64,000 nt of DNA from Lama guanicoe (Eukaryota). A program made the translations under genes and the position numbers. Below, piece after piece: positions 6,700 through 63,865 of this stretch (positions within the stretch are counted from its first letter, which is position 1; each line of letters begins with the position of its first letter). The notes beneath the pieces were generated by a model. It searched no databases. It worked only from the letters and a program-made list of their open reading frames with translations, and was not told where the DNA came from. The DNA is taken from assembly GCA_013239625.1 (NCBI GenBank), contig MU053347.1, forward strand, positions 154,132 through 218,131. Reading direction: 5' to 3'.

Positions 6700-7500
6700 G
6701 CTGCCCCACCTTCTCTCGAAGAACCCAGAAAGGATCGCTGGCCCTCCTGCGCATGCGCAGTCGGTGCTAGCTGATCCGCTGGTTGGAAGCTCCATCTCCG
6801 AGCCGGGGATCGGCCCCAAAGGCTTCTTAGCTCTGTCGCCCGGTAGGCCTTTGGCTCCTGCCCCGGGCCGGGGCCTCTGGCTGTGGAAGTGCAAGTTGTG
6901 GGGCTCCCGGGAAAGGGGTCAGGCGGCTGCTGGAGGGCGGTCCGCCTGTCACAGCCCCCTAGGGCGCCAGTCAGCGTGTGTTCAGCTGAATTGCTCCGGC
7001 CAGACCCCTCTACCCTCGCCACCTGCCCCGGCGCCCCGGCCACAGCTGTCCAGGGCCAGGTGTGCATCTGCCGCCTCTCGCCCCAGCCGGGCTCCCCTCA
7101 GTTCGCGGCTGGCGTCCCCTTCCCCGCTCCCGCCGCGAGTCCTCTCCTCCCGGGGTTCCTCTCCTTGGCCGCTGGCCCGTCCCTGCCCCTGGGCGGGCTG
7201 TGTCCCGGGCGGGCGGGGTCTGCGGATCCGGACGGGGGAGGGCGGCTGGGGCTGGGGCTGGCCTCCGAGCGGGGCTGCAGCCCGCGTTTCCACACCTCCC
7301 CGCTTTCCCTGCCCCTTGACCCCGGGGCTGCCCTCCTCTCCGTTTCCCCTCCCTGAGGACCAGCTCAGTGGCGTGGGCATTGCTCCCTGGGCTGAGAGCC
7401 TCCGGCTGGAACGCCCAGCTTCTCCTGGTGGAGTCGGGAAAAGGGAGCGCCAGTGCTGAGCAAGCTTCTGTCTCCTCCCTCAGTGTTTCTGCCCCAGGTA
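6700..7500 (+). promoter_or_regulatory. CpG island / promoter and probable non-coding first exon(s) of the TRAPPC9-like locus
   Basis: Very GC- and CpG-rich; perfect NRF1 palindrome TGCGCATGCGCA at 6748-6759; GC boxes; consensus donor CAG|GTAAGT at 7497/7498 and weaker CCG|GTAGGC at 6842/6843; lies 4.5 kb upstream of the ATG-bearing exon. Confidence 0.8.
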
Positions 7501-8109
7501 AGTACCTTGAACACTTTTCAGGTATGATGGCGGTGCTTGTTGATGTCACGTGTTTTTATAGTGAGAGGGATTACAGTGGTGAAAGCAGGGCTTGGTTCAG
7601 TTAAAGATGAGCTGAAGGGGTGAGGCTGTTACATCCTCCTTCCTTCCCTCTCCCAGGGTGAAACGTGTGACTGTCGATTTTAATGATAGTTACAGTCCCT
7701 AACTAGCCCAGCCCAGCTAGTGTGTGTTAACAGGAATGGCACCACCAGAGGCATTGGAGACCCAGAGACATTGCAGTCCTAAAGAGCTCCTGGCACAGTA
7801 TGGTTTGTTGTGTTTTTTTTTTCTTAAATTGTGGGGCAGACTAGTTGTATAGAGGGAAAAAAATTTGTCAAGAAATATTTTTTCATATAACAGCTTTATT
7901 GTGATATTTTTCACACACCATGTAGTCTATCCATTTAAATGTTACAATTCAGCAGCTTTTAGCATATTCACAGATGTGCAACCATTATTATTCCAGAACG
8001 TTTTCATCACTTCAGAAAGACCAGTGGAAATGAATGACCTATCCACCCCTCCCCAGTGGTGGTTCTAAAGAATTTTCTTGGCTGTTCCTGATCATAAATT
8101 AACTTGTTA

Positions 8110-8518
8110 TGTGAAGGAAAAGCCCAGCTTGGCTAACAAACTAACTCGCAAATTTAAGTGTGATAAGTGTCTGTTTACTGATATAAGTTCTGCCGGGCTA
8201 ACTCGTAAATCTGAAGTTCAGTGTCAGTTTACTGGGCTAACAACCTAACTCGTAAATCCAAGCTCAACAAGTGTCAGTAACGTGATCTGTTCCGAATTGA
8301 TAAGCTTCAGTGTACTGATTCCTTGCTTTTTGTTTTATGAACCTTATTGGCTAATAGCCCATACTTGTAATTAACCCTATAAAACCTCATCTGTAGGTCT
8401 TGGAGGTGCTCAGAGCTTCGGAGCAGTAGCCCCTGTGAGCCCGCCGGCCTAATAAATCTGAGTACTCCAATCCCCCGAGTGGTGCTTTTTTCTTGGCTGC
8501 CCTGTCATTTCTGTAACA
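8110..8518 (+). mobile_element. Solo LTR, same family as the provirus
   Basis: TGTGAAGGAAAAG...TGTAACA; 4-bp TSD GTTA at 8106-8109 and 8519-8522; TATAAAA box; AATAAA at 8451-8456. Confidence 0.95.
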
Positions 8519-8934
8519 GTTACATTCCATGAAAAATATGGTAGGAATTCTCATCAGAATTGCATTGAATCTGTCTATCAAAGCAGGAAGAATTAATGTC
8601 TTTGTGGCATAAACTTCTTCTACCCATGAATATATTTGGCACCCTATCTTTTCATCTGTCCACAGCCTGGCCCATGGGAAGCCCTCACTAATTTTTGGAC
8701 TTGTGAATGATGGGATTCTATACATCGTTAGTTGCAACTGTAGCCTTTCACAGAAGAGAAAAGTAACCTCAGTGAAGCCAAGTGACTCTCTGATGGTCAG
8801 AAAGAGTGACAGTCAATGCTGGAGAGATCCAGTGGACTTCGTGCTTGCAACCAGAATTCTCCACCACATAAAGATAAGGGGATTACAGTGTTCTTTTATT
8901 TTTTCTTAATGGCGTTACTTTTATTTTTCCTTTT

Positions 8935-9200
8935 TTTAAAATTATTTTTTATTGAAGTGTAGTCAATTTACAATGTTAGTTTCAGGTGTTCAGCAGAGAT
9001 TCAGTTATAAACATATGCATATGTATATACATATGATTTAGATTGTTTTTAGTACAACTCATTACAAGAAATTGAATATAGTTCCCTGTGCTGTATAGTA
9101 GGTCCTTGTCATTTATTTTATATTTATTAATGTGTATCTGTTAATGCTCCCTTTCCTGCCCGCTAACCACAGTTTGCTTTCTTTGTCCATGAGTCCATTT
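8935..9200 (-). mobile_element. Short L1 3'-end fragment
   Basis: ttttattgaagtgtagtcaatttacaatgttagtttcaggtg...; similar copies near 11345, 58720-58980 and 63900. Confidence 0.75.
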
Positions 9201-11429
9201 CTAGGAGCACCGTTTTTTCTAGTAATATATGCTGCTTGGCTGCTTTCAGTTTCAGTAATTCCATCTTATCTGTGGGTGCTTTTCTTCTGGTGGCCTTTAT
9301 GTGGTTTGCACACGTGGTAATAGAGATCTGTATTTGGGAGAACTCCAGGCCTCGTGTAGTCCCTGGTACAGAGTGCCCACTGAATTGATGCTTGAACTGG
9401 GAAAAAAGCACTGTAAATATTGGAATTTCCTCTATGTTTGAGACTTCCAGGTTTCTATAACCTGTTTAGCCCACCTTAATATTGGCTGCACCCATACTGG
9501 GTAATTGGGTGGAAATTCATGGTATAATGGTGTAGAGACAGGGCCTTGTATGCTTCTTCTCTTTCCTTTTTCTAGCACTCATTCTCCTGGGCCTCCCAGA
9601 TCCTCCCCCAGAAGTGCCCAGGGCTGGCTTGGTGCTGCGCTGAGGCAATATTTGTCAATATGGCCCTTTCCTCATCTCATTTGAGCCTCAGTTTCCATCT
9701 CTGCACAATGAGGGCTTAGACTAGATAAGTGCTTTTCAGTTTCTTTTAAAGCCATGTTTCCTTTGAGAAACAGAAAATGCAAATCTCTCCTCCCATCCCA
9801 ACCCTGTAGATTTTGACAAGTCCTCCAAGGAGTGACATAACTCTTTGTGGAAAATTGATGTGATTGTGATTCCAGGTGGCACAGAAAAGACTCTTCAGAG
9901 ATTTATTGCAGGGAGAGGGCAGGAAAGGGGCAGTATGCCACACTTTCTAGTGTGAGCACTGGAGTAGGGGCTTGGATTTATATACGGTGTCTGACGTGAC
10001 CTCTCTCTAATCTTGCACAATGTGATAAACCTCTCTCCCTCAGTTTCTTAATGTGTCAAGTTGGGGTGATAATATTTTATGGCTTTTGTGAAACATTATA
10101 CACATAAGCCATTTGTGTCTCGGTCAACAAGACCTGCTAGGGAGTCAGGGATTTCTTTAAAAAAAAAAAAATCTTGTTCACAGCACTCTGTCTGTGTGTA
10201 TTTTGAAGTTCCTGGTGGATGAGGGTTGAGTCTAAAGTCCATCATGGGACAGGTGGCCCAAGGTTCTCTGTGCCCCAGATTTCCCTCTCCCCCCCAGTCC
10301 TCTTCCTTTCAGTCCAGGAGGAAGTTCCCTAGTAGATTTACACAGAGGTCTTTTGGAAATGGCTTTTCATTTTATTGTTTCACCAAGAAGGGCTGCCATC
10401 ATGATCTCTGTTGTCAGGTTTTGGTGATTTGAATGCTATGCAATTAGGGGTTTCTATTTAATAAAAAGAAAAATATTACAAATACAACCTTAGACCTAGG
10501 GTGGTGACAGGGGCTCTTGGAAGTGGGGACCATTAGCTTTGTTAGCTTCAGGTGCAGTGGCCTCTGGCCACAAGGACCCATCCTCGTGCTCTGAAGTTGG
10601 AGGGACCAGTAGGTTCAGTGGGAATGTTTACTGAGTGTATCTCATGGGCTGGGCATTGTCCTATTTGTACTGTGTGTGCCTTATTTGAGAGAGTGAGCCC
10701 ATTTAACCTCAAAAGCCTCTTTAAAAAATTAGAATTTTTATTTTGAGATGTAATGTAGTTTCACATGTAGTTGTAAGAGATAATATGGAGAGGGCCTATG
10801 GACACTTTGTCCAATTTTCCTTAATGGTTCCATCTTGCAAAGTTGGGGTACAATTCATCACTGACTCACTAACCCTTTGAGGTTTGTGTTATTATCCTCA
10901 TTTCTATTCATGATTAAGCTGGGGCTTAGAGAAGCTCACAGGCCTGCCCAGGTCACCCACATGGTTAGTGCAGAGTCGGATGGAACGTGGGCTTGGGATT
11001 TCCAGGCAGTGCCATTATGATGCTCTATGGCAGGGAGCAGCATTCACTTTGCTTGTTTATTCATTCATTCAACAAACATTTATTGAGTAAACTCTGTGGG
11101 TCAGATGCTTTTAGAGGGTTATCTGATTCTTCAGCAGTACTGAGAATAAGGTAATATTTATTTTTTTCTAATCTGAGAAAATTAGCTCTGAGAGGTTATA
11201 ACCCCCCCAAAGGAAATATAGCTCATAAATGAGCGATACTAAATTTGCACAGTCCCCCCTTTTTATGCAGGTGGTACCCTAAGCATTTTACATATACAGA
11301 CTTCTGTAATCCAGATACATTCTTGCAAGGCAAGGATTTTTTTTTTTAATTGAAGTATAGTCAAGTTTACAATGTTGTGTCAATTGCAAGGTGTTTTTTG
11401 AATTTTGAATTAAAGAATATTTTTTCAGG

Positions 11430-11540
11430 AGGGTAATTAGGTTTATTTATTTGTTTCAATTTTTAAAATGGGGTACTGGGGAATGAACCCAGGACCTCGT
11501 ACATGCTAAGCACGTGCTCTACCAATGAACTGTACCCTCT
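11430..11540 (-). mobile_element. tRNA-derived SINE, camelid Vic-1-like
   Basis: Reverse strand gagggtacagttcattggtagagcacgtgcttagcatgtacgaggtcctgggttcattccccagtacc has A and B boxes and an A-rich tail. Confidence 0.8.
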
Positions 11541-11977
11541 TCTCCAAGGCAAGTTTTCTTATCCATTATTCTGCAGCTTAGGAGTTCAAATAAATTGGAG
11601 TTGAGATCCAGATCTTTTGATCCCACTGTGGTTCTTTTCTTTATACTCTGCTGAAGGGGGTTGGGGAAAGCAGTTCCTTTGTTCATTTCTTTATTCAGCA
11701 GTTTTGAGCACTGACTTTGCATCAGGGTCTGGCTAGGTGCTTGGAAACAGAAAACAAGAAATGACCCTTCACTGAAGGGACAGGAAGCGTAGACCAAAAC
11801 CTGAGTAATGTGATCCGACCTACGGTAGCCATGTGCAGACTCTCAGGACAAACTGTACCCCGGATTTGCTTTGGCTTCCCTTGCCTTCTGGCTGGTACAC
11901 ACCAGGTCACCACAGCCCAGATAGGCCCACAGCACACAGCAGAGTATTTACCTTGATCTCCTCTCTCCTCTCGGCAG

Positions 11978-12527
11978 GGCCTGCAACATGAGCATCCCTG
12001 ACTACGTGCAATGTGCTGAGGACCACCAGACTCTCCCCGTTGTGGTCCAACCTGTGGGGATCATCTCAGAGGAGAATCTCCTTGGTGAGCCAGATCAGCC
12101 CATGCGGCTCCCATTGGGCACTCTGTATCCACTACAGGCACCACTATGCGCCCGAGAATGGGTGGAGCGGCTTCCAGACCCACCGCAAGTTCGTGGGCCT
12201 TGTCACCATTACCGACTGCCTCTCTGCCAAGGCCTTCGAGAAGCTCTACGTGCAGATGAGCTGTATGGCACCGCGTTTAATGACTCTCAGCTCTTTGTCT
12301 TTGTGCTGCATGAGGAAGTAGCTGAGCAGCCGCGCACCGACGTGGCCTTCAATCTCCCAGGACTTCAGGGTGGTGGAGAAGAGGATCGAGGAATTCACTG
12401 AGTCACTCTTCATCTTGCTCAAGTCCAAGTGGCTGGATGGGGCCCCCGAAAATTCTGGGGACAAGATCCCCCTCCTCTGCATCCTGTTTGAGAAGGAGGA
12501 CTTCATGGGACTGGACACAGACAGCAG
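11978..12527 (+). pseudogene. TRAPPC9: TRAPPC9-like pseudogene, first coding exon (exon 2 equivalent)
   Basis: Polypyrimidine-CAG acceptor, 10-nt UTR, ATG 11988: [30 protein letters not shown]; then in other frames [54 protein letters not shown] and [24 protein letters not shown]; donor AG|GTAAGT; several frameshifting deletions. Confidence 0.95.
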
Positions 12528-12761
12528 GTAAGTCTACCTGGAGGCCCGTCTGCCCTGACTCTGTTCCGGGTTGCTTCCCTACATCCAGAAAGGGATCAGC
12601 AAGGAAGAGGGCTGTCTTGTAGCCAAGGGGGGAGGGAGGTGCAGCCCGCCGGTTTACAGACATTTTAAAGTGAATCCGCCTTTGTTTCAGAGAGATCCTT
12701 TTAGGGTTAGTGTGGACACTTACTACCGCTTTTTAGCCAGGACCATGGTGGGACCCCTGGA

Positions 12762-13092
12762 TTTGCTGTCCAATACATTAGCCACAGCCACTGATGCTAG
12801 GAGTACTGGGGAGGAGGCTGCTCTGAGCTGAGATGTGCTGTAGGTCAAATGCACATCAGACGCTGAAACTTGTCTAGTAAAAAGAATGTAAACTATCCTG
12901 TTACTTTCTATATTGATTACATGTCATAATGGTAGTATTTTACATACAGTAGATTAAGTAAGATCTGTTCTTAAAGTCAGTTTCTAGTATTTGTTTTTTG
13001 TTTGTTGGTTTGTTTCTTTGTTTACAGTTTTAAATGTGGCAACTGGGAAACTTTCTTTACATGGTACTCATTTCATTTCTGTTGGGAAGCCT
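12762..13092 (-). mobile_element. MER33-like hAT-Charlie DNA transposon remnant
   Basis: gctgtccaata...tagccac...gagatgtgctgta...aaagaatgtaaa...tatattgattacatg...aaatgtggcaact resembles the MER33 consensus as remembered. Confidence 0.7.
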
Positions 13093-16000
13093 GTCCTGGG
13101 ACAGTCTCATCCCTTTGCTTATAGATGAGATGCTGAATCCAGAGATGCAGAAAAGGCACTGGTTGAGCTGGGGCTGGAGCCGGTGTCTCCTGCCTCCCAG
13201 GCCCAGCACCTGTTCGGCTCAGGCCCTCTCTTCCTGCCCGACAGCCACCATGCCAAGTTAGGACATCAGAAACACCGCCAGGGACTTCTGAATGAACTCC
13301 TTACGCAGGGAAAGGCATGTCACGGAGTATGGGACAGAGCAGTGAAAGATTCCTCCTCATTCTGTCCCTGTGATTAGGTCAACGGCCCCACTTTGCCTCG
13401 GAAGTGTAGACGAGATCTTCTGGGCTGCCCACACCCCCCCCCCACATTCTGCTCTGTTTCCCCGTGTGTCCATCGTGCTGTCCCTCGGGCAGAAGAGGGT
13501 GAGATGCATTTGCCGAGAGGTGGTCCCACTTTGCTGGGGAGAGTGAGGGAAGCTATGTCCCCCCGGCCTACGGCCTCTGGCCTTGAGTCTGGAGAGTGCT
13601 CATGGTGGTCCCACATGTGACGGTTGGAGGACCCTGCACGTGCTGCCGGGCCCGCTGTGGAGGCGGTGTTCTGTGATTCTTGAACTTACCTAAGATCAGA
13701 TCCTGCATTCTGGTTGTTGGTAAGTTGGAGTAGAAGATGCCAGAGAATTGATAAAAAGAAAATCCAGACCGGTCCTGTGAGTGACAGGCACATGGGACCC
13801 GAGTCCCACATGCGTGTGGTGCCTGGCAGGCTCTGGATGAATTTTCAGTTCCTCCCCGGACATACCTCTGTGGCTTAAGGAAGTGGCAAGTCATGTGGCC
13901 ATGATCTGTACTTGTCCTCACAGGGCCCTGTGCTCTAACTCCCACACTTCCCTTCAGCTCCTTAGAGATGAGGTGGCAGTTTTAGGAGCCTGGGCACTGC
14001 TGAGGTCACAGCTACCAGCACAGTGCTACACCGAGGCTGGCTCCATTCACGTCAACTGTCACCTCCTGCTGAGCCCCCATGCATTAGTCAAGGTAGGAGC
14101 AACGGTTCAACGTAAGCAGGGACCACCTTCTCCCCCTGGACAGACTGGTGGTTGAGCAGTGGAAGCCTGGAGCCCTGCGGCAGCCCTTGGCCAGTGCTTC
14201 CTCTTTTGTCATAGGAGGCACTGGTGACATTTTTGCTCAGCAACTGCTTGGCTCTGAGTCTGCAGACCCACCAGAGAATGTCAGCTTGTTTTGCCTTTTG
14301 AAATCTGTCCTTGGGATTTGGCAGAGTAGATGGATGTGTGCTTAGTCAGTAGTGGTTGACACTGTCACCATTGTTTACCCAGTACCTCGTGTACCAGGCA
14401 TGGCTCCCGGCATCAAAATACAGCAGCGCATTAAACCTCCCTCCTGGTGGGTCTGTATGTTCTGGTACCATAAGGGCCAGCATCTGAACGTCAGTGAGAT
14501 AACGCAGCCAGTGAGCTCGGGTCAAGCACGTTCTTCTCCAGTCACTTTTATTCCATTGTTGCTTTTACTATTTCCACAGTCATTAATTTTTAAAACAATG
14601 CTTTGGTGCAGGAGCAGAGCCTAATTCTCTCCTGTTACTCTTGGTGGGAGTGAGAAAAATTGTTCAGCTTGAAATGTGACCACATTTTGTAGCTCAAAAG
14701 CTGTCTCCACGCATCTAGGTGGAGTTTTGGTTAGGGGCGCTGACCACGTTGGGGTCCCCCGGCAGCGCCGCTCCCCTCAGGCCCCTTCCTTCCCTGGAGC
14801 AGGAGGTGATAGTGGGTCTCACCGTCCCCACGTCCCTGTCCTAATCACACACACATAAATTCTTGCAAATACTGTCAGATATTGTTGTTCTCGTGTGTTT
14901 CTAATTTTCGCTGTTCCTCTTTTCCTTTTTCTATTTCCCTTTTTCTCCTGTACCGCCCTGTGAGCATGTTGTTGGTCTGAAAATGTGGGCTGTGCACACC
15001 CTGCATTGGAAATAGCCAGATCGCCCTCTGTGCTGTCTCCATCGCTTTAAAAAGCAAAAACTTAACAGCTGCCTTGATCCATATATTATCCTAGTCATCT
15101 TTTTATTTTCTAGTTTTTTGGAATTTTCGCTCTGTTAGAGCATCATCCACTGGTGTTTGATACCTGTTAAAGTCCTTGCTTTGAGGAACCTGTTTGTTCC
15201 TCCTTATATTTGGTGACAAATGCGCTCTTACTAATTTTGTTTATTTGTTTTGAAGAAGTGAGATGCGAATTGATTTAGGCGGCTGCTGAGGGATTTTTTT
15301 CATGGAGTATTTAAACTTGGAAAGTCAAAATCTGCAGCACCTTGCTTGATTCTGGCTTTTACACAAACCTGCTCGGCACGTGGTTCCTGGCTTGGCTGTC
15401 GCGACGTGCGTGACGGCGCTTCCTGGCCGGCGGTCACTGGTGAGGAAGTGGCCGGCTCGGGGCTGAGCAGCTGCAGGGGACGCTGTTGGAGGAAGCAGTC
15501 ACCGGTTTTTTGTTTTTTGGTTTTTTTTTTGCATTCACCTTCCCGGTGCCATTTACTTTACTTTGCATTCATAGAGGGGCAGGAGCGTGTCTAAAATCCA
15601 TGCCACTCACTTTTTCCCTTTACTAGGCTGGATTTTCTGAGTATCATGACAACATGCCCTCCTCCTAAGTAGCTGGCTCACCTGGATCTGGTGGACACAG
15701 GGACCGCTAAAGGGGACCGTAGCTTCCTCTCTGCTTCAGCCAGTGGGCATTCAGAGCCGGGTCTGTGGTTTGCCTCAGCAGCCGTGCAGGCCTCACTGCA
15801 CCGGCCTTTTCATTTAACCCTCGTTGGCAGTAAATAGCCGACTTTGTGTCTGTTGCAGCTGACGTCCACCACTGACGGCCGTGTCGTTATTTTGCGGTAG
15901 AGTCTCCAACACCCCTGTCAGCCGTGAAGGGACTTTGCATTCTCACCGCTACCCTGGTTCATCTCACCCAGGGGAAGGGTTTGGCCACCACCATCATGCT

Positions 16001-19623: not shown

Positions 19624-19626
<3 letters not shown>

Positions 19627-47555: not shown

Positions 47556-47559
47556 TTTC

Positions 47560-50575: not shown

Positions 50576-50582
50576 TATTCAC

Positions 50583-50700
50583 TGTAAGGGACCATATTTA
50601 GTGGTATTAACTACCCCTACAGCTGTTAAAGTTGCAGGAATCACCCCTTGGATCCACCACTCCAGGGTTAAGAAAGCGACTTCACCTCAGACAGAGGGTC
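50583..50700 (+). pseudogene. pol: ERV integrase C-terminal remnant (GPY/F region)
   Basis: [31 protein letters not shown]. Confidence 0.9.
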
Positions 50701-51600: not shown

Positions 51601-51615
51601 AGTGGTGAAAGCATC

Positions 51616-51627
51616 AAGAGGGGGGAA
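51616..51627 (+). promoter_or_regulatory. Polypurine tract
   Basis: AAGAGGGGGGAA immediately before the 3' LTR TG. Confidence 0.9.
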
Positions 51628-52092
51628 TGTGAAGGAAAAACCGGGCTGGTCTGACAAGATAACTCATAAGTCTAGGAATGTGAAGGAGAGGCTGGGCTGG
51701 TCTAACAAGATAACTCACAAATCTAAGTATTGGAATACTGATCTGAGTTCTGCTAGGCTAACTAGTAAATCTAAGTTAATTAGTGTTGGTTTTCTGTTTA
51801 TGTTTTTTCACTAGCCAGTTGGGTTTTCAAAGATACATATCTGGCTTTGGAATGTTGGTTTGCTGCCTCCCCGCCTCTACTTTTGTGATAATAATGCTGC
51901 TAAAGCTGTTCCATGCCTATTGGCCGAATACCCCAAGCTTGTACTTTACCCTATAAAACCTCATGTGCACGTCTTGGAGGTGCTCAGAGCTTCGGAGCAG
52001 AAGCCCTTCTGAGCCCACCGGCGTAATACATCTGAGTACTCCAACCCTTCGAGTGGTGCTTGTTTCTTGACTGGCCTGTCGTTTCCATAACA
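51628..52092 (+). repeat. 3' LTR
   Basis: TGTGAAGG...CATAACA; collinear with the 5' LTR; TATAAAA 51952-51958; AATACA 52025-52030. Confidence 0.95.
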
Positions 52093-52603
52093 TAAGCATT
52101 AAACCAGAATGCAGTGAGCATCTCAGGCAGTCAGCTAAGAGATTGCAAAGGCAAAAAGAAATGTCACTGTTCTATATAGCCAAGCAGATACAACCCATTA
52201 TATCAAAAAATTTAAAGTAAACAATAACTAGTTTTCAAGTCAGAGAAATTGGCAACACCATTTGTCACACATTATTCATACTAATTTTACCTGGTAACTG
52301 TACTAACCATCTGTGTTAGCTAATTAGTTTTATCTAAAAGAATAACAAACTTTTCATTATTACAACAAGAGATAGTTTTGCATCTTGGAGCAAGAAGGCC
52401 ACCAAGAAATTAGACTCCTACTCTCCCACAAAAACTGAGAGATCAGGAGTCCTATCTCCCTTGATGCTAGCATTTCCAGGAGATGGCACACAGGTTCTTG
52501 AGAAAAACTATCCTGGGGCATAAAGCTGACAAAAGGCCAACTAACAAAAGGCATATTTAACCTTCAAAAGGATGATAAGAAACTGCTACAATTACAAGCT
52601 TCC

Positions 52604-53044
52604 TGTGAATGAAAATACTGCAACCACATCAGTAAAAAATGCTGAAATCAGGTCATCAGCAGCTGCTGCCACCCCCCATCGAGGACAGGCCTGCAGCCCA
52701 GCCTCTGCAGCCACTCACAATGGTGCCCTCTGAGTGGACTCAGAATAAGAAAGAACAAAATAAAACACCCTAGATAGCTAGAGGCTTGTCAGAGGAATGA
52801 ATGCAGTGATCCCAAATGTTTGCTTCCTCCCATACATAGAAAAGCACTCCATTCTTGAAATTGAGATGCCTGGCTTTCTTTAGATAACAAGCAATCTTTT
52901 ATCATTCCCAATACCTGGCCTTTGTTGTAAAGCACCTGTATATCCTAGCTTCTCCCCTACCTCTTCGGAGCAGCCCCTCAGAGTTCTTCTGCCAGATGAA
53001 ACAGAACTCTCAACTTTTAGGCTGTGCATTTATTTCAGTCAACA
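52604..53044 (+). mobile_element. Probable older solo LTR (different family)
   Basis: Starts TGTGAATG, ends TTTCAGTCAACA; LTR-like text cctacctcttcggagcagcccctcagag...aactctcaacttttaggctgtgcattt. Confidence 0.6.
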
Positions 53045-56000
53045 ACACCAATTAGGTCTCAGAGATCCTGGACTGAATAGGAGTCCCAGGATTGGATGTT
53101 TTCCATTTTAGTATGCCTTGCTGGTCAAAGTGGGATCAAAGGGTAAACTTTCCATCACTAATCAGATCTGAAGAAATATTAGATATTGACACGATATTTC
53201 CATTCACATTATTGATAAAATGGTAACTCAAGCTATTTAATTGACTTTCCCACAGGTTAGATCATGACTAGTAACTTTTTTTTTTTTAAGTACCTGTCTT
53301 TTTAGCTGACCAGTGATTCCCTATTTTGGTGCATGGCACATTCATAAAATCCCACTCCTAATAATTTATCTTTGTCTTTACCTCTTATATACCCTAAAAT
53401 GGAATCAAAAGTTTAAGACTTAGTATGACTAAAATGATTCTGTAGAGCTGAATACTTTCTTTGTATCTTCTGATAGAATTGTCTAAGAATTTCAACATTT
53501 TTCCTTTTCTTAGAATTCCACAGTAGCCATAACTCAATTCCCAGAATTTCCCTCAAGAATATATTATTCTTTGGGTTTTTTTCCTAATAATTTATAATGA
53601 AGTCAGAAGCCATGGCCTCTTAATGTATATGCAGACTGTCTAGCACTCTGATTTTAGGTATATTAAAAATTATATTATATATGCATATATATAATATATA
53701 GGCATGTGAGTATTTATATAAAGTATCACTGGAAATATCAGAATAACAGTGGTGATTTATGTGGATAAGAATAGAGCTGAAAGGATGAAAAAAGATAGGA
53801 AAAAATTAAAATGTTCAATGTAACCTTATTCCTCAGAGTCTTGTAATAAATAGTGCACCAGTGGGCCATAGCTGGTCATGGTGCCTAAGTGAGGGCACAA
53901 TATGGATTTGCTAAGTGTGCTTTACTTTGAAATGGAGGCTCTTCATTCTCTGGTTATTGATGGTATCATTTGTAACATTATTTTTATTCAACCATGAACA
54001 ATGGAAAATTAAAACGACTTTGATCACTTTGGAAATTCTCGGCATGGCTTTTCATTTGTAACTATCAATTATTTAAGGAATAGTTTTAAATGGCTCTCAG
54101 AGCCCTTTTGGGGGTAAAATTACAGTAACTTAGGTAGCAAATGTGAATGATCTAAGTTTTTAGTTCCATATGGAATAAAAATGCCTTATAAAAGAGTCAC
54201 ACTGCCACCTACTGACAACTTTTTGTAAAAGAACCAGCATTTTCTCATTAGCCTAACTGACTGTGCACTTTAATGATCTATTACTTGGCATGTGGCTGTA
54301 TGGAAAAAAGGGGTAACAAAGTGTATCCATTGCTCAGTGCATCTACTTGAAATAATCTCACCATTCACAGAGGCCATTTCAAGCTATTCAGTTTTTAACT
54401 TTTACATACTGCAATTAGATACATTTTTTTTCAGATACATTTATTAACGGCATTACTGCATAGTATTTCATAACTGATAAAACTATTTTCAGGAAAGTGA
54501 CTGCAGAGTGTATGTTAAAAAATCTGCCCTGCATTTATAGTGCATAGAGACTTGCTAATAGGATTTTCATAACAGCATTCATCTCCCAGCACATTTTATA
54601 GTACCAACCACTATGTAACAGTAGTGTTGTTATTACATTATGTGAAAAATAGGATTTGTTCTAAGGACACGTGTTATAACCTGAACTGTGAAAGTACAAT
54701 GGTAGTTGAAGCACCTATGCACTAAACCATTTTCATTCCTATCCTTTTCTACCTTTGCCAGAGTTGATATAAGAAAAACATCCTGTGCTATTATAAATAG
54801 ATCAAAGATTCATATCAGTATTTCCCATGAACTAGGAGCTCAGGAGTGTAGCATCCTTCTGTACAGTGACTATGATGTTGCAGATAGCAAGAATCAACTC
54901 CTCCCAATTAGTAGCAATCATCATCAAATTGAATGTATTCCTCAGCTGATTTCCATGGAATCATGTTACTGATTTCTCTTTCTGCCATGTTCCAAGATGT
55001 GGAATTTCTCTCCAAGTTAAAGTTTAAATTCAAAGCATTATTTTTCACAAGAGAAAATTCATGAGTACTTTTATCAGTTTTTCAGATAACCACGTGCTGT
55101 GCATATTTTAAAACAAATACAAAAGAAAAAAATTGCAAACTTGGCCAAACTCATAATCCCTTACAAAATAATCCATACACAAAACCCGAGCTCTGAGCCC
55201 CATGTAACAATAGCCAAGTACCTCAGTTGTTCATAATCCTCACAAACAAAAAGAAACAATTTTCAACCTAAAACTGCTTAAAATAGCTTAAATGTAGGTA
55301 AAAATCAATCAGAGGACTTACCATCAGCCTACTGTTTTACATATTTGTTGCCTGAAGTCAATGAAAGGAGAATACACAATACTGCAGAGCTGAAAGCCAT
55401 GCACTATTCAGGTAGGGCACATGATTGCATATATTGTCATAACTGGCTTTCCTAAGATTTATTATAAAACACAGTGAATTAAAGGCTCTCTTGAATGGGG
55501 ACCCAAGAAAGCATAACATTCTGCTCTCAGAACTCCATCTCAGTTTGAATAAGAAATCACTCAAGAAGATATGAAAGGCCTAGATTTTCATGCCACCTTT
55601 TAACTAGGTCTAAATAAATGTTAAAGATTCTTGCTACATTTCTTTGCCTTACAAAATAGAGCATTTGCAAATGATAATCCAGTTATAGCCACTACAAAGA
55701 GCATCATGACTGAAAGATATCTAGGCTTTCTTTTCCCTCAACAAAACACATTTAAAAGACTGCAGAGAAATGCATATAGAATATGGAACATTTCCATTAA
55801 TAGCACTGTTATTTTATAGAAACTTGACAATGAAATATTTATAGTTGAACTATTTTTCACTTTATTTTGCTTGTTTCAGATCATTTTGCGCCACATAGTA
55901 AATTAGGATTTATATTTATCTTCAGATCTGTCTTTTGATTTTTTGGCTTAAATTAGCTGGATACTCTAATAATGGCTGAACCCTAATTAATTCTAGAATT

Positions 56001-57403
56001 CTAGAATCATAACGCTGAATCAGAAAGACCTTAGAGTTTCAGCCCTCCCCCTTAACAGGCAAAGAAAATGCTCCTGGCGGTACAGGGATAATGCCAGCTG
56101 AAAATATTCTGGGGAGAATGCAAATTAGAAATGTTAGAGTAATCTACCACACTGCAAAAGAGAAATTTCTTTTTTCTGAATTTAGATCTGATATAGAAAT
56201 GAGATTTACATCTGTGGAAACTCCTTGTGGTGAATTTCAACTGGAGACTTTAAAGTCAAAACAAAGCCAAGATGTTTTATATGGAAAGAGAGGAGGAAGG
56301 CATTTTCTGTCTTTTTAATTGCAAAAACATATCTGGCCGGCTAGCACAGAGGATATTTAGAAGATTGAACAGTCATAGTTCAGCCCTGGATCTCAGATCC
56401 CTGAGAAAGTTTAAGCCACTGATTATGACCCTTTTTACTGGTAAAGTGTCCAGTGTTTATTTTCCTCAAAACAACCCTTCCACCCCCAAATCTGCAGTTT
56501 TGTTTTTATTGATTCTGAGCCAAATACTCCAATGTGTGCTGATCTAAGCACGTACATGTCCTGGGTTGCCCTGACAATCCCAAATTCTGCTTGTTACCCA
56601 GAAGTAGATAATAATAGTGGCTCTTTTATGGTTGATAAGTTCCATTTTAAGTTATTCACGCCAATTCTAATCCAAGTGCATCTGTGACTGCCACCTTTTG
56701 CCTGCTCAGTGGAATTTTGTGGGTGGTCTTATTGTGAGTGGGTGGTCTTATTGTGAGTTGGTGGGTATAGCCTGAAACATCAGTGGACCCTCAGGCTCTA
56801 GCTCCATCCTCCCAGGAGGGCTTCAGGGCTTTTAGGCAGAAGGAATAGCATATTGGGAATGACTGTCAGTCCTGGTCTTTTCCAACACGTTTTCCTGAAA
56901 CAAGGAGGATGCTTGTGGGTGGGAGGAAGCTTCCAGGGAAGAAGGGAATAGTACAGCTCGTGCTGAAAGAAACTCAAGACTCATTATTTTCTTCTGCATT
57001 TGTTTGGAGAACATTTAATGAGGATGTGTGTTAGATACTTGGAAAGTAGGATGACATAGTCCCTACTATGAGAGACTCTTTGTTCAGAGAGAGAAAAGGT
57101 CAAGTCAAGTAACAGTGGATACACAGGGACATTTAATCACTCAGCTTGAGGATATGGGGACATGAGTCACAGAGAGATTTAGGGAGGGCAGTCACTTGAA
57201 CTACAATTTGGAGGACATAATATGAGTTAACCAGGCTGGGGTGGAAGGGATGGGAAAGGACCTCTGGGTAGAGGGAATAGGACCTGCAGAGGCATAGTGT
57301 ATGTTTTGTACCAGTTAACTTTTGCTGTGTAACAAGCCATCCCCCTCAATTAAATAAAAAAAAAAAACAGCATTATTTAGCTTACCCTTCTGTGGGTTGG
57401 CTG

Positions 57404-57880
57404 TGTTGCCAGAGAGTAGGTTCTTGCACAGGAAAGGATTCAAGAGTGAGCCATAGTAAAGTGAAAGCAAGCTGACTTAGAGAGGTACACATTCCATAGG
57501 CAGAATGCATCCATCTCAGAAGAGATACTGACCATGAGTTCTGGGGGTTGTTGGTGTTTATGGGCTGGGTAATTTCATATGCTAACAAGTGGGAGGATTA
57601 TTCCAACTATTTGGGGGGAAAGAGTAGGGATTCCCAGGAATTGGGCCATCACCCAGTTTTTGACCTTTTATGGTCAGCCTTGAAACTGTCATGGCACCTG
57701 TGGGAGTGCCATCTAGCATGCTAATATATTACAGTGAGCATAAAATGAGGCTCAGGGTCTACTGGAAGTTGAATCTTCTGCCATCTTGGTGCTAATTGGG
57801 TCTAACCAGTTTATGTCCTATCCTCAATGGCTGTGTCATTCTTTTAGTGGTTGCACCCTGTCCTCTTCCCTCTTGTCTCA
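57404..57880 (-). mobile_element. Probable ERV1-type solo LTR next to the gap
   Basis: TGTTGCC...CTTGTCTCA termini; aagatggc/gccatctt motif; appears inserted in a MaLR-like fragment starting about 57308. Confidence 0.65.
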
Positions 57881-57882
57881 AC

Positions 57883-57963
57883 NNNNNNNNNNNNNNNNNN
57901 NNNNNNNNNNNNNNNNNNNNNNNNNNNNNNNNNNNNNNNNNNNNNNNNNNNNNNNNNNNNNNN
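57883..57963. other. Assembly gap (N run)
   Basis: 81 N, ending 17 nt before the collagen exon. Confidence 1.
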
Positions 57964-57980
57964 TTCTTCTCCTTTGAAAG

Positions 57981-58315
57981 GATTCCACATAGATTTGTCT
58001 GTAGGAATTGATGTCTCCACCCCCAGGAGGCAAATTCAGCAGTCGCTTGAAGGGTTACTGCCAGAGCTGATGCAAGAGCTAGCCTTGCTTTCCAACATCA
58101 GCTGTAGCCTTCCTGGTCAAACCGACGTGATGTTCCACTACGTGGTTCCTGGTTCAAGTGGCCAGCTCATCTTTGACTCAGGTTTTGAAAAGTACAGTGA
58201 TGGGAGAATTCAGAAGTTCTTGATTCAGCAGGCTGCCAATAGCAACCACATGGATGTGGGTTTTTTGCAGTCCCTGGGAGATAGTGCTCTCCGCCTCTCT
58301 TCTGCTAAAGTGAAG
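57981..58315 (+). CDS. COL6A4: Collagen VI long-chain N1 (VWA-like) domain exon, best fit alpha-4
   Basis: tttgaaag|GA TTC..: FHIDLSVGIDVSTP..LLPELMQELALLSNISC..FDSGFEKYS..FLQSLGD..SSAKVK|gttaca; 335 nt, phase 1 to 0, open; homologous to but distinct from remembered COL6A3/A5/A6 N1 domains. Confidence 0.8.
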
Positions 58316-59581
58316 GTTACAAATGCTGAGAACCCACATTATCGAACCATTAGGCATGAGGAGGGATAAGGCTTTTGGGACTGAGGACAAATAAACTGTT
58401 CTTCACTGAGGATCATGCATAGAGGAAAACTAGTCTTATTCAGTCAAGATTGACAAGAGATGTGTTTTCATTCAATAAACAAGTATTTACTAAGCGCTAG
58501 AGGCTCTTTGCTAAATGTCATTAGAGGTAAAAGGTTAAAGTCACTGCCCTTGGGTTGCCCACAGCTTAGCGATCCAGGTTTTCCACGACATAAATTCCTT
58601 CCAAAGACAGCTTGGAAGATATTAGCTCCTCATGGTCACTCATTGTAAGAACCCATTGTTTCTCTCTTTCTTTCACTCTCTCTCTTTCATGATTTTATTT
58701 ATTTATTTGTTTGTTTATTTATTTTAATTGACATATAGTCAATTTCCAATGTTGGGTCTGTTTCTGGTATACAGCATCATGTTTCATATACATACATCTA
58801 TTCCTTTTCATATTCTTTTTTTGTCATCAGTTACTACAAGATATTTAATACAGCTTCCTGTGCTATATAGTAGAACCCTGTTGTTTGTCTTTTTTATATA
58901 TAGTAGTATCTGCTGATCTCACACTCCCAATTTATCCCTTCCCAACCCCTTCTCTACTCTGGTAACCATAAGTTTGTAGGACCCATTGTTTTTGTAATCA
59001 GCCCCCTGAACCATCTTTAGTGACAGTTAATGGCTTGTTAGCATAACCCCTCTCCTCCCTTTCTGCTGCCCCAGAACCATGCACCCACAGAAGTCATAGA
59101 AGTAAAAAGATCTCATATGACATCTATTAGGAAAAGACCTCCCCAAACTTTGAAAGTTACATTGAGTTTTTCCTTCCATCATGCATCCGATGGATTTATT
59201 TCTTAAAAAATGTAATTCACTTTTTAAATTCAATTTTTCTATGAGTAAAGGTAACAGAGGTAAAGAACATTGTAAGACAATTTTTGGACGATATCTTTAA
59301 GTGAACACATTAAGCTGCTTCAAATTCTTTTTCAGCGGTGGGGGTGTGTGTGGGAGGACATGGAGGACAAGTGAGTGTGTAATAAAGTAATAAATGAATG
59401 GGTAAAATGGAATAGAACAGGGTGAAAGGCTGGTTATAGCTTACCCTTGCATTTTTTAAGAAACGTGCAATTTACAGCATCCATCTTTTCCATTGCCCCT
59501 CCCCTCTGTCCTCCCTTCTTCTTCCTTCTCCCTGGTCCCTCTGTTCCTGCATCTCCCATACCCCCCTCTCATAAACAACAG

Positions 59582-59660
59582 GTCCTTTTAGTGTTTACAG
59601 ACGTATTGGATGATGATTTAGAGAGACTGAAGGAAACGTCCCAGCTTCTCCGCAGCAAAG
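59582..59660 (+). CDS. COL6A4: Collagen VI N1 domain exon (second)
   Basis: aacag|VLLVFTDVLDDDLERLKETSQLLRSK G|gtaatt; 79 nt, phase 0 to 1; compare COL6A6 VVLLFSDGLDDDVEKLEQKSDELRKEG. Confidence 0.85.
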
Positions 59661-60549
59661 GTAATTGCATGTTGTTGTTCCTCCCACAGGGGCAGAGATG
59701 GTCTTTCAGATTCCGGATGGCCCAGGAATCTCTGAGCCCCCGAAGGCTAAGCCAGGTAATTGGAGCTCAGTGCCCAAGAGGCTGCTGCCCAGTTTCTGGC
59801 TTCGTATGAATCAGGGGGCTATTGAGGGCTGAGAGACCCCTGGGTCTCTCTGACTGAGACAGGGCTGACCAGTTACCAGTCCAGCATCTGGTTCAGAAGG
59901 TTGTGGGTGCAACCCCTGCTTCGTGGGAAGTGGGTGCTCTCTGCTCTTTTCAGCTACCCAGGGGTCCAACCGTCTCTCTTTCCTAAACTCTAAAATCACC
60001 CTAAAGCTGCGTCTTACTTTTTCTACTGTCCTTCCTCCCTGATTCTTCTTTATCCATCTCCAAGGGCTGCTGCATACATACATGTATATGTACATATATA
60101 TGTATATAATCAAAGTATAGTTAGTTTGCATTACTGTATTAGTTTCAGGTGTCCAACATAGTGATTTGATATTTTTGCAAATTATACTCCATTTAAATTT
60201 ATTATAAAATATTGGTTATATTCCCTGTGCTGTACAATATATCCATGTAGCCTATTTATTTTATACATAATAGTTTGTATTTCTTAATTCCCTCCCCCAA
60301 TTTGCCACTCCCCTCTTTCTCTCCACACTGGTAACCACTAGTGTGTTCTCTTTATGTTAGTCTCTTTCTGTTTTGTTATATTCATTTGTTTGTTTTATTT
60401 TTTAGGTTCCCCACATAAGTGATAAATAACATAGTCTTATCTTTATCTGATTTATTTCACTAAAAGTGATACCCTCCAGGTCCGACTATGTTGTTGCAAA
60501 TGGCAAGATTTCATTCTTTCTATGACTGAGTAGTATACCTTTGAATATA

Positions 60550-61353
60550 CAGTTGACCCTTGAACAACCGGGGGTTAGGGGCACCAACCCTGAGTACAGT
60601 TGAAGACTCATGTATAACTATATTATTGCAGAAAAATGTGTGACAGCTCAGTGGTACAGCTCAGTGTTATGGCTCAGTGTTACAGCTCAGTTGTGACAGC
60701 AGCCTGGATCCGGGTGAGAGACCAAGCAGCACTCGGAGAGTAGGAGAACTCAGGTTTATTATGCCAGCGGGCCCAGAGGAGTTAACACTCCAAGCTCTGG
60801 ACCCCATCTGTAGGTTTACACAGGCTTTTAATAGGCTGTCAGTTTACACTTTGCAACATCATATGCAAATAAGATATAACAATAGTTGTCTAATTAGGAT
60901 CAATCAGGAGGGAGAGAAAGAACCAATCAGGTGTAAGCTCCATGCAAATGAAGTACTACAAATGGACCAATCAGAAGTTAGGGAAATGGACCAATCAGGA
61001 ATGAAGGAAATAACCAATCAGGAGTGAGCTCAGGGAACAAATAGAATTTTAGGGGTAAGTTCCACTTTCCTAGAAGTAAGCTGTTTCAGAGGCAAAAAGT
61101 GAGATAGAGCCACTGGGCCAGGAAACTGGATGGTGCTGGCAGGAGAGTAGTGGCCATGCCTGGGGGTCCTGCCGGTCTTTTTTATGGGGCTTCCCACCTC
61201 AATATAACCTCTGTATCCACAATTCATCCATAGTTGAATCCACAGATTCAACCAGCCACGCATCATGTAGGACTATAGTGGTTATTTATTGAAAAAAATT
61301 CGCATGTTAGTGGACCCATGCAGTTCAAAGCCATGTTGTTCATAGGTCAACTA
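60550..61353. mobile_element. Tigger2-type (TcMar) non-autonomous DNA transposon
   Basis: TIRs CAGTTGACCCTTGAACAAC and GTTGTTCATAGGTCAACTA, flanked by TA. Confidence 0.85.
60624..61201 (-). mobile_element. Solo LTR nested in the Tigger element
   Basis: Reverse strand starts TGAGGTGGGAAG; TSD ATAT at 60620-60623 and 61202-61205; AATAAA on reverse strand (tttatt near 60755); repeated ACCAATCAG and CAGCTCAGTG units. Confidence 0.85.
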
Positions 61354-63719
61354 TATATACCACATCTTCTTTATCCATTCCTCTATTGATGGACATTTAG
61401 GTTGCTTCCATATCTTGGCTATTTAAAAAACTGCTTCTATGAACACTGGGTGCATGTATCTTTTTGAGTTAGTGCCTTCATTTTTGTTGGAAACATACCA
61501 AGGAGTGGAATTTATGGATCATTTGTTAGTTCTGTATCTAGTTTTTTGAGAAACCTCCATATTATTTTCCATTGTGGCTGCATCAATTTACATTTCCACC
61601 AAAAGTGTACAAAAGTTCCATTTTCTCTACATCCTTGCCAGTATATGTTGTTTGTAGACTTTTTGATGATAGCCATTCTGACAGATGTGAGGTTTTGTTT
61701 TACTGTGATTTTCATTTGCATTTCTCTGGTGATTAAGGATATTGAGCATCTTTCCCTGTGCCTGTTGGCCATTTGTATGTCTTCTTCGTAAAAAGGTCTA
61801 TTCAGGTCTTCTGCCCATTTTTTGATTGAGTTGTATGTTTTTTCAATATTGAGTTTATGAGATGCTTATATGTTTTGAGTATTGACCCTTTATTGGTCAT
61901 ATCATTTGCAAATATTTCTCCCATTCAGTAGATTGCCTTGGTTTCGTTGATGGTTTAGTTGATGGTTTCCTTTACTGTGTAAAAGCTTTTACGTTTAATT
62001 AGATCCTATTGATTTTGCTTTTGTTTTCTTGCCAGATCCAAAAAGTTATTGCTGCAATTTAATGTCAAAGAGTGTTTTGCCTGTTTGTTTGTTTGTTTGT
62101 TTGTTTTTTTGAAGTGTTTTATGATTTTTGGTCTTACATTTAGGTCTTTAATCCATTTTGAGTTTATTTTTGAGGTTTATATGATGTGAGAAAATGTTCT
62201 AATTTCATTGTTTTACATGTAGCTGTTCAGTTTTCCCAGCACCACTTATTGAAGAGACTGTCTTTTCTCCATTGTATGTTTTTGCCTCCTTTGTCATAGA
62301 TTAGTTGACCTTAGGTGTGTGGGTTTATTTATAGTCTCTGTATTCTGTTTCATTGATCTCTGTGTCTGCTTTTGTGCCAGTATGTGTCTGTTTTGATTAC
62401 TGTAGCTTTGTAATATAGTCTGAAGTCAGGGAGCATGTTACCTCCAGCTTTGTTATTTTTCTCTTAAGATTGCTTTAGCAAATCAGGGTCTTTCATGGTT
62501 CCATATAAATTTTAGGATCATTTGTTCTAGTTCTGTGAAAACTGTCATGGGTACTTTACTAAGGATTGCATTAAGTGGAATATTTTCTGACAATTTGCTT
62601 TCAACTAAATTTACTGCATAGATTTCCACTGAAAGTTTAAAATGTTGCAACTTTTCTGGAAGGGAACTGGGAGTTCATGACAAAGGACTGCAAACTTTGC
62701 CTACGAGCTAGATCAGCAATTCCATTTCCAAGGATTTATTTTGAGGAGTAATTAAGAATTTGTATACAACTTTTAATCACAGGATTTTAAAGCAGTTTGT
62801 TTGCCATAGCCAAGAGCTGATGTGTGTGCATGTGTGTGTGAATTTACTGTTTAAGTATTAACGGTAATATTTGTTTGGAAATTCTACTTGACTTCTGGCC
62901 AGATTTGAGAAATGTTCTTGTCACTATGTTTTCTGTTACATGGAAAAACCCAGATGATCTCTCAGTGTCTGCATCAGTAGGAGACGGTTGTTATTCTGTA
63001 ATGACCACCTTCAAATCTCAGTGGCTTAAACTAGCAAGACTGTCTCCATCTTGTACCTCGTGCCCTTTCGTTCATGCCTCTTTCTCATCAGTCGAGGACC
63101 CAGGCTGAAGGAGGGATCTGTTTCTGTGGGAGGGGAAAGAAAATGGGCTGAAGTGTACACTGCTCTTAAAATTTCTCCCAGGGAGTGACAGTGTCACCTC
63201 TGCTCATATTTCATTTGTCAGAGCCAGCCATGCGGACAGTTGTAACTTTCATGAGATAATATTTTTGCAGGTGAAGAATTGGGGCTTAATGAGAGCTTAT
63301 AATTTTCCCAAAAAAGTCAAATCCTACCTCATCCTCTTCGGTAGAGGAACCAGAATATTTGTGAACAGCCTGCAAGATGGTCACAGAGTAAACCACAAGT
63401 CTACTTCAAGCATGGGGTTAAAGGATGTAACTTCATACCGTAACGGAGGAAAACTCTCTTTCAAATAGAAAACTGGGGCTATAAGAGCCCGGAGGGTCCT
63501 TTGTGGTTCCATCTAACTGTTTGACTTTCAGCTGCAGGGATTGAAAGATGTCAGACCAATTCTTCAAGAAGGCATGTCATGAGCTAGCTTTGATTTTAAA
63601 AGAAATGCAGTTTGAGACAAGATTGATGAGGCTGTAGGAGCGGTGATGGATATTGGGGCCCAAAGACAGACCATTCAAAAGATGTGCAAGGAAATCCCCC
63701 ACCTGTTGGTGTTTTGAAG

Positions 63720-63865
63720 GATTCTCTGGACTCCTTACTATTGGCCTGGAAGGTGTGTATAAATTGGAGGAGGTCCAGGAGCTAGAATTTGGCAGAGGAT
63801 TTGTGTATCATCAACCTCTCAGCATCACACTGCCATCCCTCCCGAGCATCTTACAGAAGCAACTT
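63720..63865 (+). CDS. COL6A4: Collagen VI N1 domain exon (third)
   Basis: ttttgaag|GA FSGLLTIGLEGVYKLEEVQELEFGRGFVYHQPLSITLPSLPSILQKQL|gtaagt; 146 nt, phase 1 to 0; the LEFGRGF motif is shared with COL6A3 (LEFGRGFMY). Confidence 0.88.

Follow-up and report, generated by a model that had tools for sequence, protein, structure and literature searches.

The 64,000-nucleotide stretch of Lama guanicoe DNA analyzed here (contig C682, positions 154132 to 218131 of the plus strand; hereafter the window) places a copy of the 5′ part of TRAPPC9 upstream of a copy of part of COL6A4, and is probably the edge of a camelid-wide tandem array of ∼61-kb TRAPPC9-5′ units at the point where the array meets younger segmental duplications that form a mosaic, the whole being most likely non-coding and inert. 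As a segmental-duplication mosaic bordering a pseudogene amplicon, the locus has an ordinary kind of structure that was hitherto undescribed. From left to right on the plus strand, the window holds a CpG-rich promoter of the TRAPPC9 type, equivalents of five TRAPPC9 exons, a provirus that is defective and gammaretrovirus-like, and then three exons of COL6A4. An earlier note, made from the sequence of this stretch, had proposed that a COL6A4 gene broken or partly duplicated in this lineage was joined across an endogenous retrovirus (ERV) to a borrowed TRAPPC9 promoter, and the elements that it described are all present on the plus strand in the order claimed, as judged by tblastn, Pfam, and alignment of the long terminal repeats (LTRs). 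Searches for further copies were run over the 2.05-Gb assembly (55,231 contigs), and 243 kb of the contig around the window (C682:54132-296970) were examined. The identities of the TRAPPC9 and collagen parts rest on tblastn and HMMER matches to named proteins, and Pfam searches of the translated collagen exons and TRAPPC9 pseudo-exons returned no family at an E value of ≤0.01.

Positions 1 to 47087 of the window (plus strand) correspond to a single ∼61-kb amplicon unit without its last ∼19 kb, as established by BLAST against the preceding unit and by multi-copy probes. The amplicon comprises the TRAPPC9 upstream region, the CpG promoter, exon 1, and coding exons up to amino acid 380. Window positions 4420 to 47087 align with the preceding unit on the same contig (C682:98082-139746) in five blocks at 87.3 to 89.6% identity and with an offset of 61.4 kb. 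A 701-bp exon 2 probe (11900 to 12600) identified 39 further full-length places at 82 to 90% identity and one partial place (the best 40 of 119 candidates), a 1.2-kb promoter probe (6500 to 7700) identified 40 places (the best 40 of 159 candidates), and the stretch from 1 to 4400 recurs in at least 36 further places at 88 to 94%. Identity between units ranged from 82 to 94% by probe and copy, with most units below 90% by BLAST. Spacings between units on the same strand were obtained in 10 cases (C682, C8825, C5985, C1175, C2129, C1369, C3610, C7593, C729, and C1869) and fell between 53.6 and 68.2 kb, while two pairs of units (C837 and C6476) are inverted; the head-to-tail units and their regular period are those of a tandem ampliconic array. 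The TRAPPC9 piece is thus no unique borrowed housekeeping promoter, since at least 39 further copies of the decayed amplicon exist (119 to 159 candidates).

The intact TRAPPC9 gene was searched for and located on C55226, where exon 2 (31088503-31089090) has an open frame and shares 94% amino acid identity with bear TRAPPC9. Among the copies of exon 2 that were scored, 39 share 56 to 65% amino acid identity, and 38 of these 39 contain stop codons. The colinearity between window positions 4476 to 13541 and the parent locus extends over the introns and the promoter, which identifies the TRAPPC9 copies as DNA-level duplicates and rules out an origin as retrocopies. In a 1.5-kb alignment of 10 sequences, the copies differ from one another by 5.9 to 12.7% and from the parent TRAPPC9 by 17.1 to 19.2%.

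Decay of the TRAPPC9 part is evident throughout the window. The equivalent of the CpG-island promoter and exon 1 (6500 to 7497, plus strand) is partly decayed, colinear with the parent island at 68 to 77% identity, and followed by a GT donor after 7497. Between 6700 and 7500, the GC content is 0.70 and the observed/expected CpG ratio is 0.58, compared with 0.73 and 0.80 in the parent island; the promoter equivalents of three other copies have ratios of 0.50 to 0.58. The search for coding exons used tblastn with four TRAPPC9 proteins. The equivalent of exon 2 (11976 to 12528; tblastn match, 11988 to 12528) covers amino acids 1 to 195 as a pseudo-exon in two frames with 40 to 54% amino acid identity and has a donor at 12528. 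Relative to the intact exon on C55226 it carries deletions of 23, 3, 12, 1, and 5 bp, three of which (23, 1, and 5 bp) break the frame, in agreement with the frameshift reported in the earlier note. The remaining equivalents, all on the plus strand, cover amino acids 208 to 244 (20856 to 20966; 73 to 78% identity; GT donor), 286 to 296 (an alternative micro-exon, AQEVLIDPG, at 29000 to 29030 with the match extending to 29032; weak, with 8 of 11 residues and an E value of 1.9; GT donor at 29031), 296 to 331 (37043 to 37150; 58 to 66% identity), and 342 to 380 (43896 to 44006, match to 44012; 74% identity), the last of which is followed by a strong GTGAGT donor after 44006. No exon for amino acids 245 to 285 was found in the window by this search, and no exon past amino acid 380 was found in the window or in C682:54132-296970, which upholds the claim that later TRAPPC9 exons are missing. 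With equivalents for amino acids 1 to 380 of a protein of ∼1,140 residues, a broken frame, and 40 to 54% identity in exon 2, the TRAPPC9 part is a pseudogene and cannot encode TRAPPC9. An insertion of ∼410 bp at window positions 8110 to 8518, relative to both the neighboring unit and the parent TRAPPC9 intron 1, overlaps a SINE-like repeat (short interspersed nuclear element).

The amplicon has left its mark on the annotation of other camelids. TRAPPC9-like or uncharacterized camelid models account for 34 of the 35 similar-length protein matches to pseudo-exon 2 (Vicugna pacos, 16; Camelus dromedarius, 12; Camelus bactrianus, 4; Camelus ferus, 2). These TRAPPC9-like models sit on contigs of many different sizes, and several of them are junk frames through pseudo-exons. 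The protein matches indicate that the amplicon is common to camels and alpaca. Among the proteins P0130, P0136, P0150, and P0141, one model starts in the region equivalent to the promoter (window positions ∼6450 to 6840). Elsewhere on the contig, 128 open frames (at least 75 to 95 amino acids) from the unit tail (C682:139747-158551) and from C682:264700-291500 and C682:54132-98081 gave no Pfam match at an E value of ≤0.001, a search in which short exons would be missed. Many long open frames, up to 257 amino acids, occur on both strands of C682:64132-78000; they have no Pfam match and may reflect a GC-rich repeat.

The right-hand end of the window (55874 to 64000, plus strand) is the start of a 56.8-kb internal duplicate of COL6A4 that runs on to C682:265174 and is 95 to 96% identical to C6476:41289673 onward. 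Segmental duplications are by definition 1 kb or longer and at least 90% identical, and the fragment (56.8 kb at 95 to 96% by BLAST) falls within this definition in both length and identity to its parent. Its first exon in the window is the N1 VWA exon (57981 to 58318; match, 57977 to 58318), which is open, has a phase-1 acceptor with an intact AG at 57979-57980, and is closest to the named whale and cattle COL6A4 proteins (72 to 77% amino acid identity). It is followed on the same strand by the exon for the end of N1 (59567 to 59683, approximate bounds; 67 to 76% identity) and the exon for the linker before the triple helix (63716 to 63865; 80 to 86% identity). A tblastn search of the window and of the preceding 100 kb detected no collagen exon upstream of N1, and the earlier note was correct on this point as well.

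The missing 5′ exons of COL6A4 were searched for and located in a complete parent gene at C6476:41272386-41365922, on a 43.4-Mb scaffold, where exons N7 to N2, N1, C2, and Kunitz stand in order. The N7 to N2 VWA exons are open and lie upstream of N1 (C6476:41272386-41287813), the exons from C2 to Kunitz exist in a single copy (C6476:41356471-41365922 only), and the N1 exon region is present in three copies, namely the window, C1369:248388, and C6476:41291741. The gene is therefore not broken. The duplicate begins inside the N2/N1 intron (window 55874 corresponds to parent position 41289673) and ends ∼0.5 kb past the C1 exon (C682:265174 corresponds to parent position 41346440); parent homology stops at both limits, and the copy lacks N7 to N2 and C2 to Kunitz. 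The description of the fragment as a 5′-truncated COL6A4 accordingly holds for its 5′ end but is incomplete, because the 3′ end is truncated too. What stands of the proposed breakage or partial duplication is the latter, a lineage-specific partial duplication of COL6A4 that has both a TRAPPC9-type promoter and an ERV upstream of it.

Substitution divergence between the window and the parent COL6A4 is 2.7 to 3.7%. The N1 exon of the window differs from that of the parent at 15 of 342 bases, and 8 of these substitutions are nonsynonymous, among them one near the beginning of N1 that replaces Cys with Phe; in the following exon, TDG of the parent reads TDV. In the C1369 copy, N1 is interrupted by an in-frame stop. 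The ratio of nonsynonymous to synonymous divergence (pN/pS) in N1 is 0.71 for C1369 versus the parent and 0.57 for the window versus C1369, each based on 14 to 15 substitutions, too few to decide. On the same strand as COL6A4 and 0.13 to 0.32 Mb past it, C6476:41487727-41678160 holds three VWA exons with 32 to 41% identity to the COL6A4 C2 query, which presumably belong to COL6A5 and COL6A6 and would fit the usual gene cluster.

Between the two gene fragments lies a provirus that spans 47092 to 52093 on the plus strand. It consists of a 5′ LTR (47092 to 47556), whose left edge is junction J1, an internal region (47557 to 51627) recognized by Pfam in several frames, and a 3′ LTR (51628 to 52093), whose right edge is junction J2; the LTRs are 465 to 466 bp long and were delimited by aligning the pair. 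Pfam domains in the provirus are Gag_MA, Gag_p30, zf-CCHC, the N-terminal part (first half) of RVP, MLVIN_C, and positions 424 to 560 of TLV_coat, which correspond to the transmembrane end. Reverse transcriptase, RNase H, the integrase core, and the surface part of the envelope were not found in the provirus by Pfam, and the element is therefore a heavily deleted, defective gammaretrovirus-like provirus. Its two LTRs differ at 44 of 465 sites (9.5%). Gammaretrovirus-like elements generate target-site duplications of 4 bp; this provirus is flanked by the 4-mers TGCT on its 5′ side and TAAG on its 3′ side, so a target-site duplication is absent. Nor is the sequence 3′ of the provirus related to the continuation of other amplicon units beyond position 47087. 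The last ∼175 bp of each LTR (47381 to 47556 and 51918 to 52093) are 84 to 90% similar to dispersed repeats (for example, window positions 5698 to 5869 and 8345 to 8521), and the LTR thus appears either to share a module with a SINE-like element or to contain one. A second ERV of the same family, 88 to 90% similar where aligned, is found at C682:291544-296455, ∼26 kb downstream of where the collagen fragment ends.

The provirus does not join the two gene fragments directly. The earlier note was right that an ERV lies between them, but a 3.8-kb spacer (52094 to 55873, plus strand) that is neither TRAPPC9 nor COL6A4 separates the ERV from the collagen sequence. This spacer represents a third, low-copy duplication family (here called C4153-like): it matches C1369 over its full length at 96% and C4153:634899-639705, C5183:3329612-3336297, and C8494 at 90 to 92%. 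A high-copy repeat of ∼440 bp within the spacer (∼52604 to 53045) is found on many scaffolds at 78 to 88% and is absent from C4153 at the same position.

Four junctions delimit these blocks. At J1, between the amplicon and the 5′ LTR, 35 of the 40 other amplicon matches listed end at window positions 47085 to 47087 and 4 end earlier, and only C6476:43283093-43285038 among them continues through the LTR. The J1 place in that copy (C6476:43284574) is a solo LTR near the scaffold end and ∼2 Mb from COL6A4. The surrounding sequence (C6476:43284501-43285500 and 43288568-43290052) holds an inverted pair of amplicon unit ends together with the solo LTR, ∼80 kb from the end of the 43.36-Mb scaffold, and beyond the LTR lies a reversed piece of amplicon unit tail. 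At J2, between the 3′ LTR and the spacer, homology to C4153, which lacks an LTR at this site, sets in at 52092, precisely where the LTR of the window ends. J3, between the spacer and COL6A4, is located at 55873/55874. At J4 (C682:265174) the COL6A4 sequence gives way again to the C4153 family, so that the collagen piece sits within a C4153-like segment. Contig C1369 contains J1 (as a solo LTR), J2, and J3, while C1743 contains J4. The region immediately beyond the collagen fragment has additional copies, 95 to 98% identical, at C73:81491-85807 and C1743:424-4366; the C73 copy is closer (96 to 98%) than any other paralogue and could either have arisen by very recent duplication or represent the other haplotype of C682.

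The comparison between the window and C1369 reveals a step in divergence at the provirus, with 8.0 to 9.1% to its left and 3.1 to 4.2% to its right overall. Two stretches on the amplicon side differ at 225 of 2,830 sites (8.0%) and 184 of 2,018 sites (9.1%), the spacer at 126 of 3,772 sites (3.3%), and the COL6A4 intron at 62 of 1,996 sites (3.1%). The solo LTR of C1369 differs from the 5′ LTR of the window at 38 of 465 sites (8.2%) and from the 3′ LTR at 27 of 465 sites (5.8%). We infer that two blocks of unlike age may have been fused at ERV copies.

The structure, copy numbers, junctions, and divergences were observed; a sequence of events that includes an exchange between ERVs can be reconstructed from them as follows. 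The 5′ region of TRAPPC9 would first have been copied at the DNA level, long ago (17 to 19% from the intact gene). This copy would have decayed and multiplied until some hundred or more copies existed, most of them arranged head to tail in arrays; the copies are now 6 to 13% apart. Gammaretrovirus-like ERVs would then have inserted into one amplicon unit and into one member of the C4153-like family, and exchange between the ERV copies would have fused both, which would account for LTR edges that coincide with the breakpoints and for the absence of a target-site duplication. A 56.8-kb piece of COL6A4 that starts in the N2/N1 intron, ends shortly beyond C1, and is ∼3% diverged was presumably copied into the C4153-like segment, its source being the intact gene ∼2 Mb away on the same scaffold, before the right-hand block was duplicated again (C1369/C1743). 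Neutral substitution rates are about 1 × 10⁻⁹ to 2.2 × 10⁻⁹ per site per year. At these rates, a divergence of ∼3% suggests that the collagen copy is roughly 7 to 15 million years old, and a divergence of ∼9% suggests an amplicon burst about 20 to 45 million years ago. These ages fit an amplicon that predates the camel/alpaca split and a collagen copy that is possibly tribe specific.

Several observations weigh against this reconstruction or against an inert locus. The TRAPPC9 units of the window and C1369 are sisters in the exon 2 tree (support, 0.994; divergence, 6.1%); duplication of the whole block, with later gene conversion in its amplicon part, would fit the divergence step equally well, and the sister relation leans that way. 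The copy counts are floors, the assembly being fragmented. All exons detected in the collagen copy (N1, ∼10 Gly-X-Y triple-helix exons, and C1, located at window positions 57977 to 63865 and C682:218226-264655) are open, and pN/pS in N1 is 0.32 between the window and the parent, based on 15 substitutions, so that there may be some constraint on, or use of, the collagen fragment. The CpG ratios of the promoter copies (0.50 to 0.58) exceed the 0.1 to 0.3 found in much of the window, and their retention would fit promoters that are incompletely methylated in the germ line. Finally, the camelid models P0130, P0136, and P0150 splice a late amplicon exon onto exon 2, as if reading through units; such cross-unit models may be either real read-through transcripts or prediction artifacts.

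A rival reading is a transcribed chimera, in which transcripts would start at the TRAPPC9-type CpG promoter of the last array unit or in the 5′ LTR, be spliced through the pseudo-exons, and then enter the phase-1 acceptor of N1; the product would be a fusion RNA without coding capacity or, with lower probability, a truncated protein resembling collagen. The parts share one strand, the donors at 12528, 20966, and 44006 are strong, the AG acceptor at 57979-57980 is intact, the CpG island is merely partly decayed, the collagen exons are still open, and annotated camelid models splice across adjacent units. Yet exon 2 has three frame-breaking deletions, the collagen fragment has neither a signal peptide nor the C2 end, and its sister copy on C1369 has an in-frame stop in N1; moreover, no camelid protein model with this N1 exon is among the nine protein matches listed, although this is a weak point, the search being limited by length. 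Of 24 sequencing runs listed for window positions 54000 to 63999, 15 share at least half of the sampled words (0.57 to 0.61), under three organism labels, and five possible RNA runs share 0.06 to 0.15, figures that do not count as evidence for expression, junctions, or species spread. We consider such a chimera unlikely. Somewhat more doubtful still is a broader scenario, in which the amplicon would be a camelid-specific macro-repeat whose ∼100 partly preserved CpG promoters are active, giving rise to read-through non-coding RNAs along the arrays and, at array edges, to chimeras into captured fragments such as the open N1-to-C1 part of COL6A4, with ERVs as the recombination joints. No reading frame runs continuously across the TRAPPC9 and COL6A4 parts, the exon 2 equivalent being frameshifted. 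Because the TRAPPC9 part is a pseudogene and the collagen part lacks the signal peptide, N7 to N2, and the C2-to-Kunitz end, the locus is most likely inert and without coding function; at most it would give rise to read-through non-coding RNA. Such an RNA, read-through or chimeric, would be compatible with the splice donors and acceptor, with the position of all parts on one strand, and with a CpG island that is half preserved.

A scaffolding mis-join, at a run of N or within a repeat, would produce the juxtaposition without any biological event, and the contig is gappy (16 runs of N in C682:54132-296970) and the region highly repetitive. Two of these runs fall in the window, and both sides of each are colinear with a paralogue. 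The flanks of the first (39194 to 39453, 260 N) align to C682:131942 and C682:132169 in the neighboring unit, so that ∼226 bp are missing there. The second (57883 to 57963, 81 N), which might have concealed the absent collagen exons or a false join, corresponds to 78 bp of intron in the parent (C6476:41291663-41291740) and in C1369 (248310-248387); it contains no exon, and its two flanks are colinear with both copies. Each junction also recurs in other contigs, J1 to J3 in C1369 at 3 to 9% divergence, J1 in C6476:43284574, and J4 in C1743, which excludes a mis-join as their source and makes an assembly artifact very improbable. We attach next to no credence to a COL6A4 gene broken in this lineage as in hominines, with the window as its sole remaining 3′ half. 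The lack of collagen exons in the 100 kb upstream of N1 on C682 would agree with it, but the colinear gene with exons N7 to N2, N1, C2, and Kunitz on C6476 contradicts it, as do the 95 to 96% identity of the window copy to that gene and the termination of the match inside introns at both ends. The locus is neither a broken COL6A4 nor a demonstrated chimeric gene, and an array edge abutting younger duplications remains the probable explanation.

Comparable structures are known from primates. As Bailey and Eichler are said to have described in 2006, primate segmental-duplication mosaics juxtapose gene fragments and can yield fusion transcripts. The present locus resembles them in combining duplicated blocks of varied age and origin and in setting promoter-bearing 5′ ends beside foreign exons near a scaffold end; it differs in that, as regards fusion transcripts, it is known from DNA sequence, and in that its main amplicon, at 82 to 92% identity, is older than the usual criterion of 90% identity admits. 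The HERV15-mediated AZFa deletion on the human Y chromosome is an example of ectopic recombination between ERV copies. The provirus described here likewise has unrelated flanks, no target-site duplication, and LTR edges that coincide with the breakpoints; instead of a deletion, the outcome here would be a fusion between two duplication families, an exchange to which the flanks and the divergence point.

In the main texts of the literature on TRAPPC9 duplication, TRAPPC9-like genes, and camelids, we found no published description of the TRAPPC9 amplicon, and no literature was found on COL6A4 in camel or alpaca. The only mention of TRAPPC9-like copies found in print is a table in the available part of PMC10568864, which gives annotated copy numbers of 0, 4, and 8 in three camel assemblies and groups them with gene families that the paper terms melanin-correlated. 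In the portion available, PMC13751797 (Chromosome Res 2026) describes pseudogene-rich repetitive blocks on alpaca chromosomes 11, 17, and 36. Both those blocks and the present amplicon are multi-megabase, repeat-rich camelid domains of fragmented, decayed copies (in the alpaca blocks, of NEK10, ATF5, FMN2, ACTB, and ABHD17A), and there too they are interpreted as segmental duplication followed by degeneration. The two differ in that TRAPPC9 and COL6A4 are unmentioned in that portion of the text, in that the alpaca blocks are reported there as absent from camel assemblies whereas TRAPPC9-like models occur in both Camelus and Vicugna, and in that the present copies form regular ∼61-kb head-to-tail units. 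According to the available part of PMC11919215, human and ape COL6A4 was inactivated by a pericentric inversion of chromosome 3 that left COL6A4P1 and COL6A4P2. In both cases a lineage-specific rearrangement has parted a COL6A4 piece from its 5′ exons; the hominine case is described as the splitting of the sole gene in two, whereas here the gene is whole and an internal 56.8-kb piece has been copied elsewhere twice.

The picture of a broken COL6A4 rewired to a housekeeping promoter is thus replaced by an intact COL6A4 with an internal copy in a duplication mosaic. Two extra fragments of COL6A4 can mislead read mapping, copy-number calls, and annotation. An amplicon that would amount to several megabases in camels and alpaca, as the product of copy count and unit length, inflates the counts of TRAPPC9-like genes. 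Beyond annotation, the locus shows the roughly hundredfold multiplication of a promoter-bearing gene fragment in one mammalian family, and the edge of an array acquiring pieces of nearby genes with an ERV exactly at the breakpoint.

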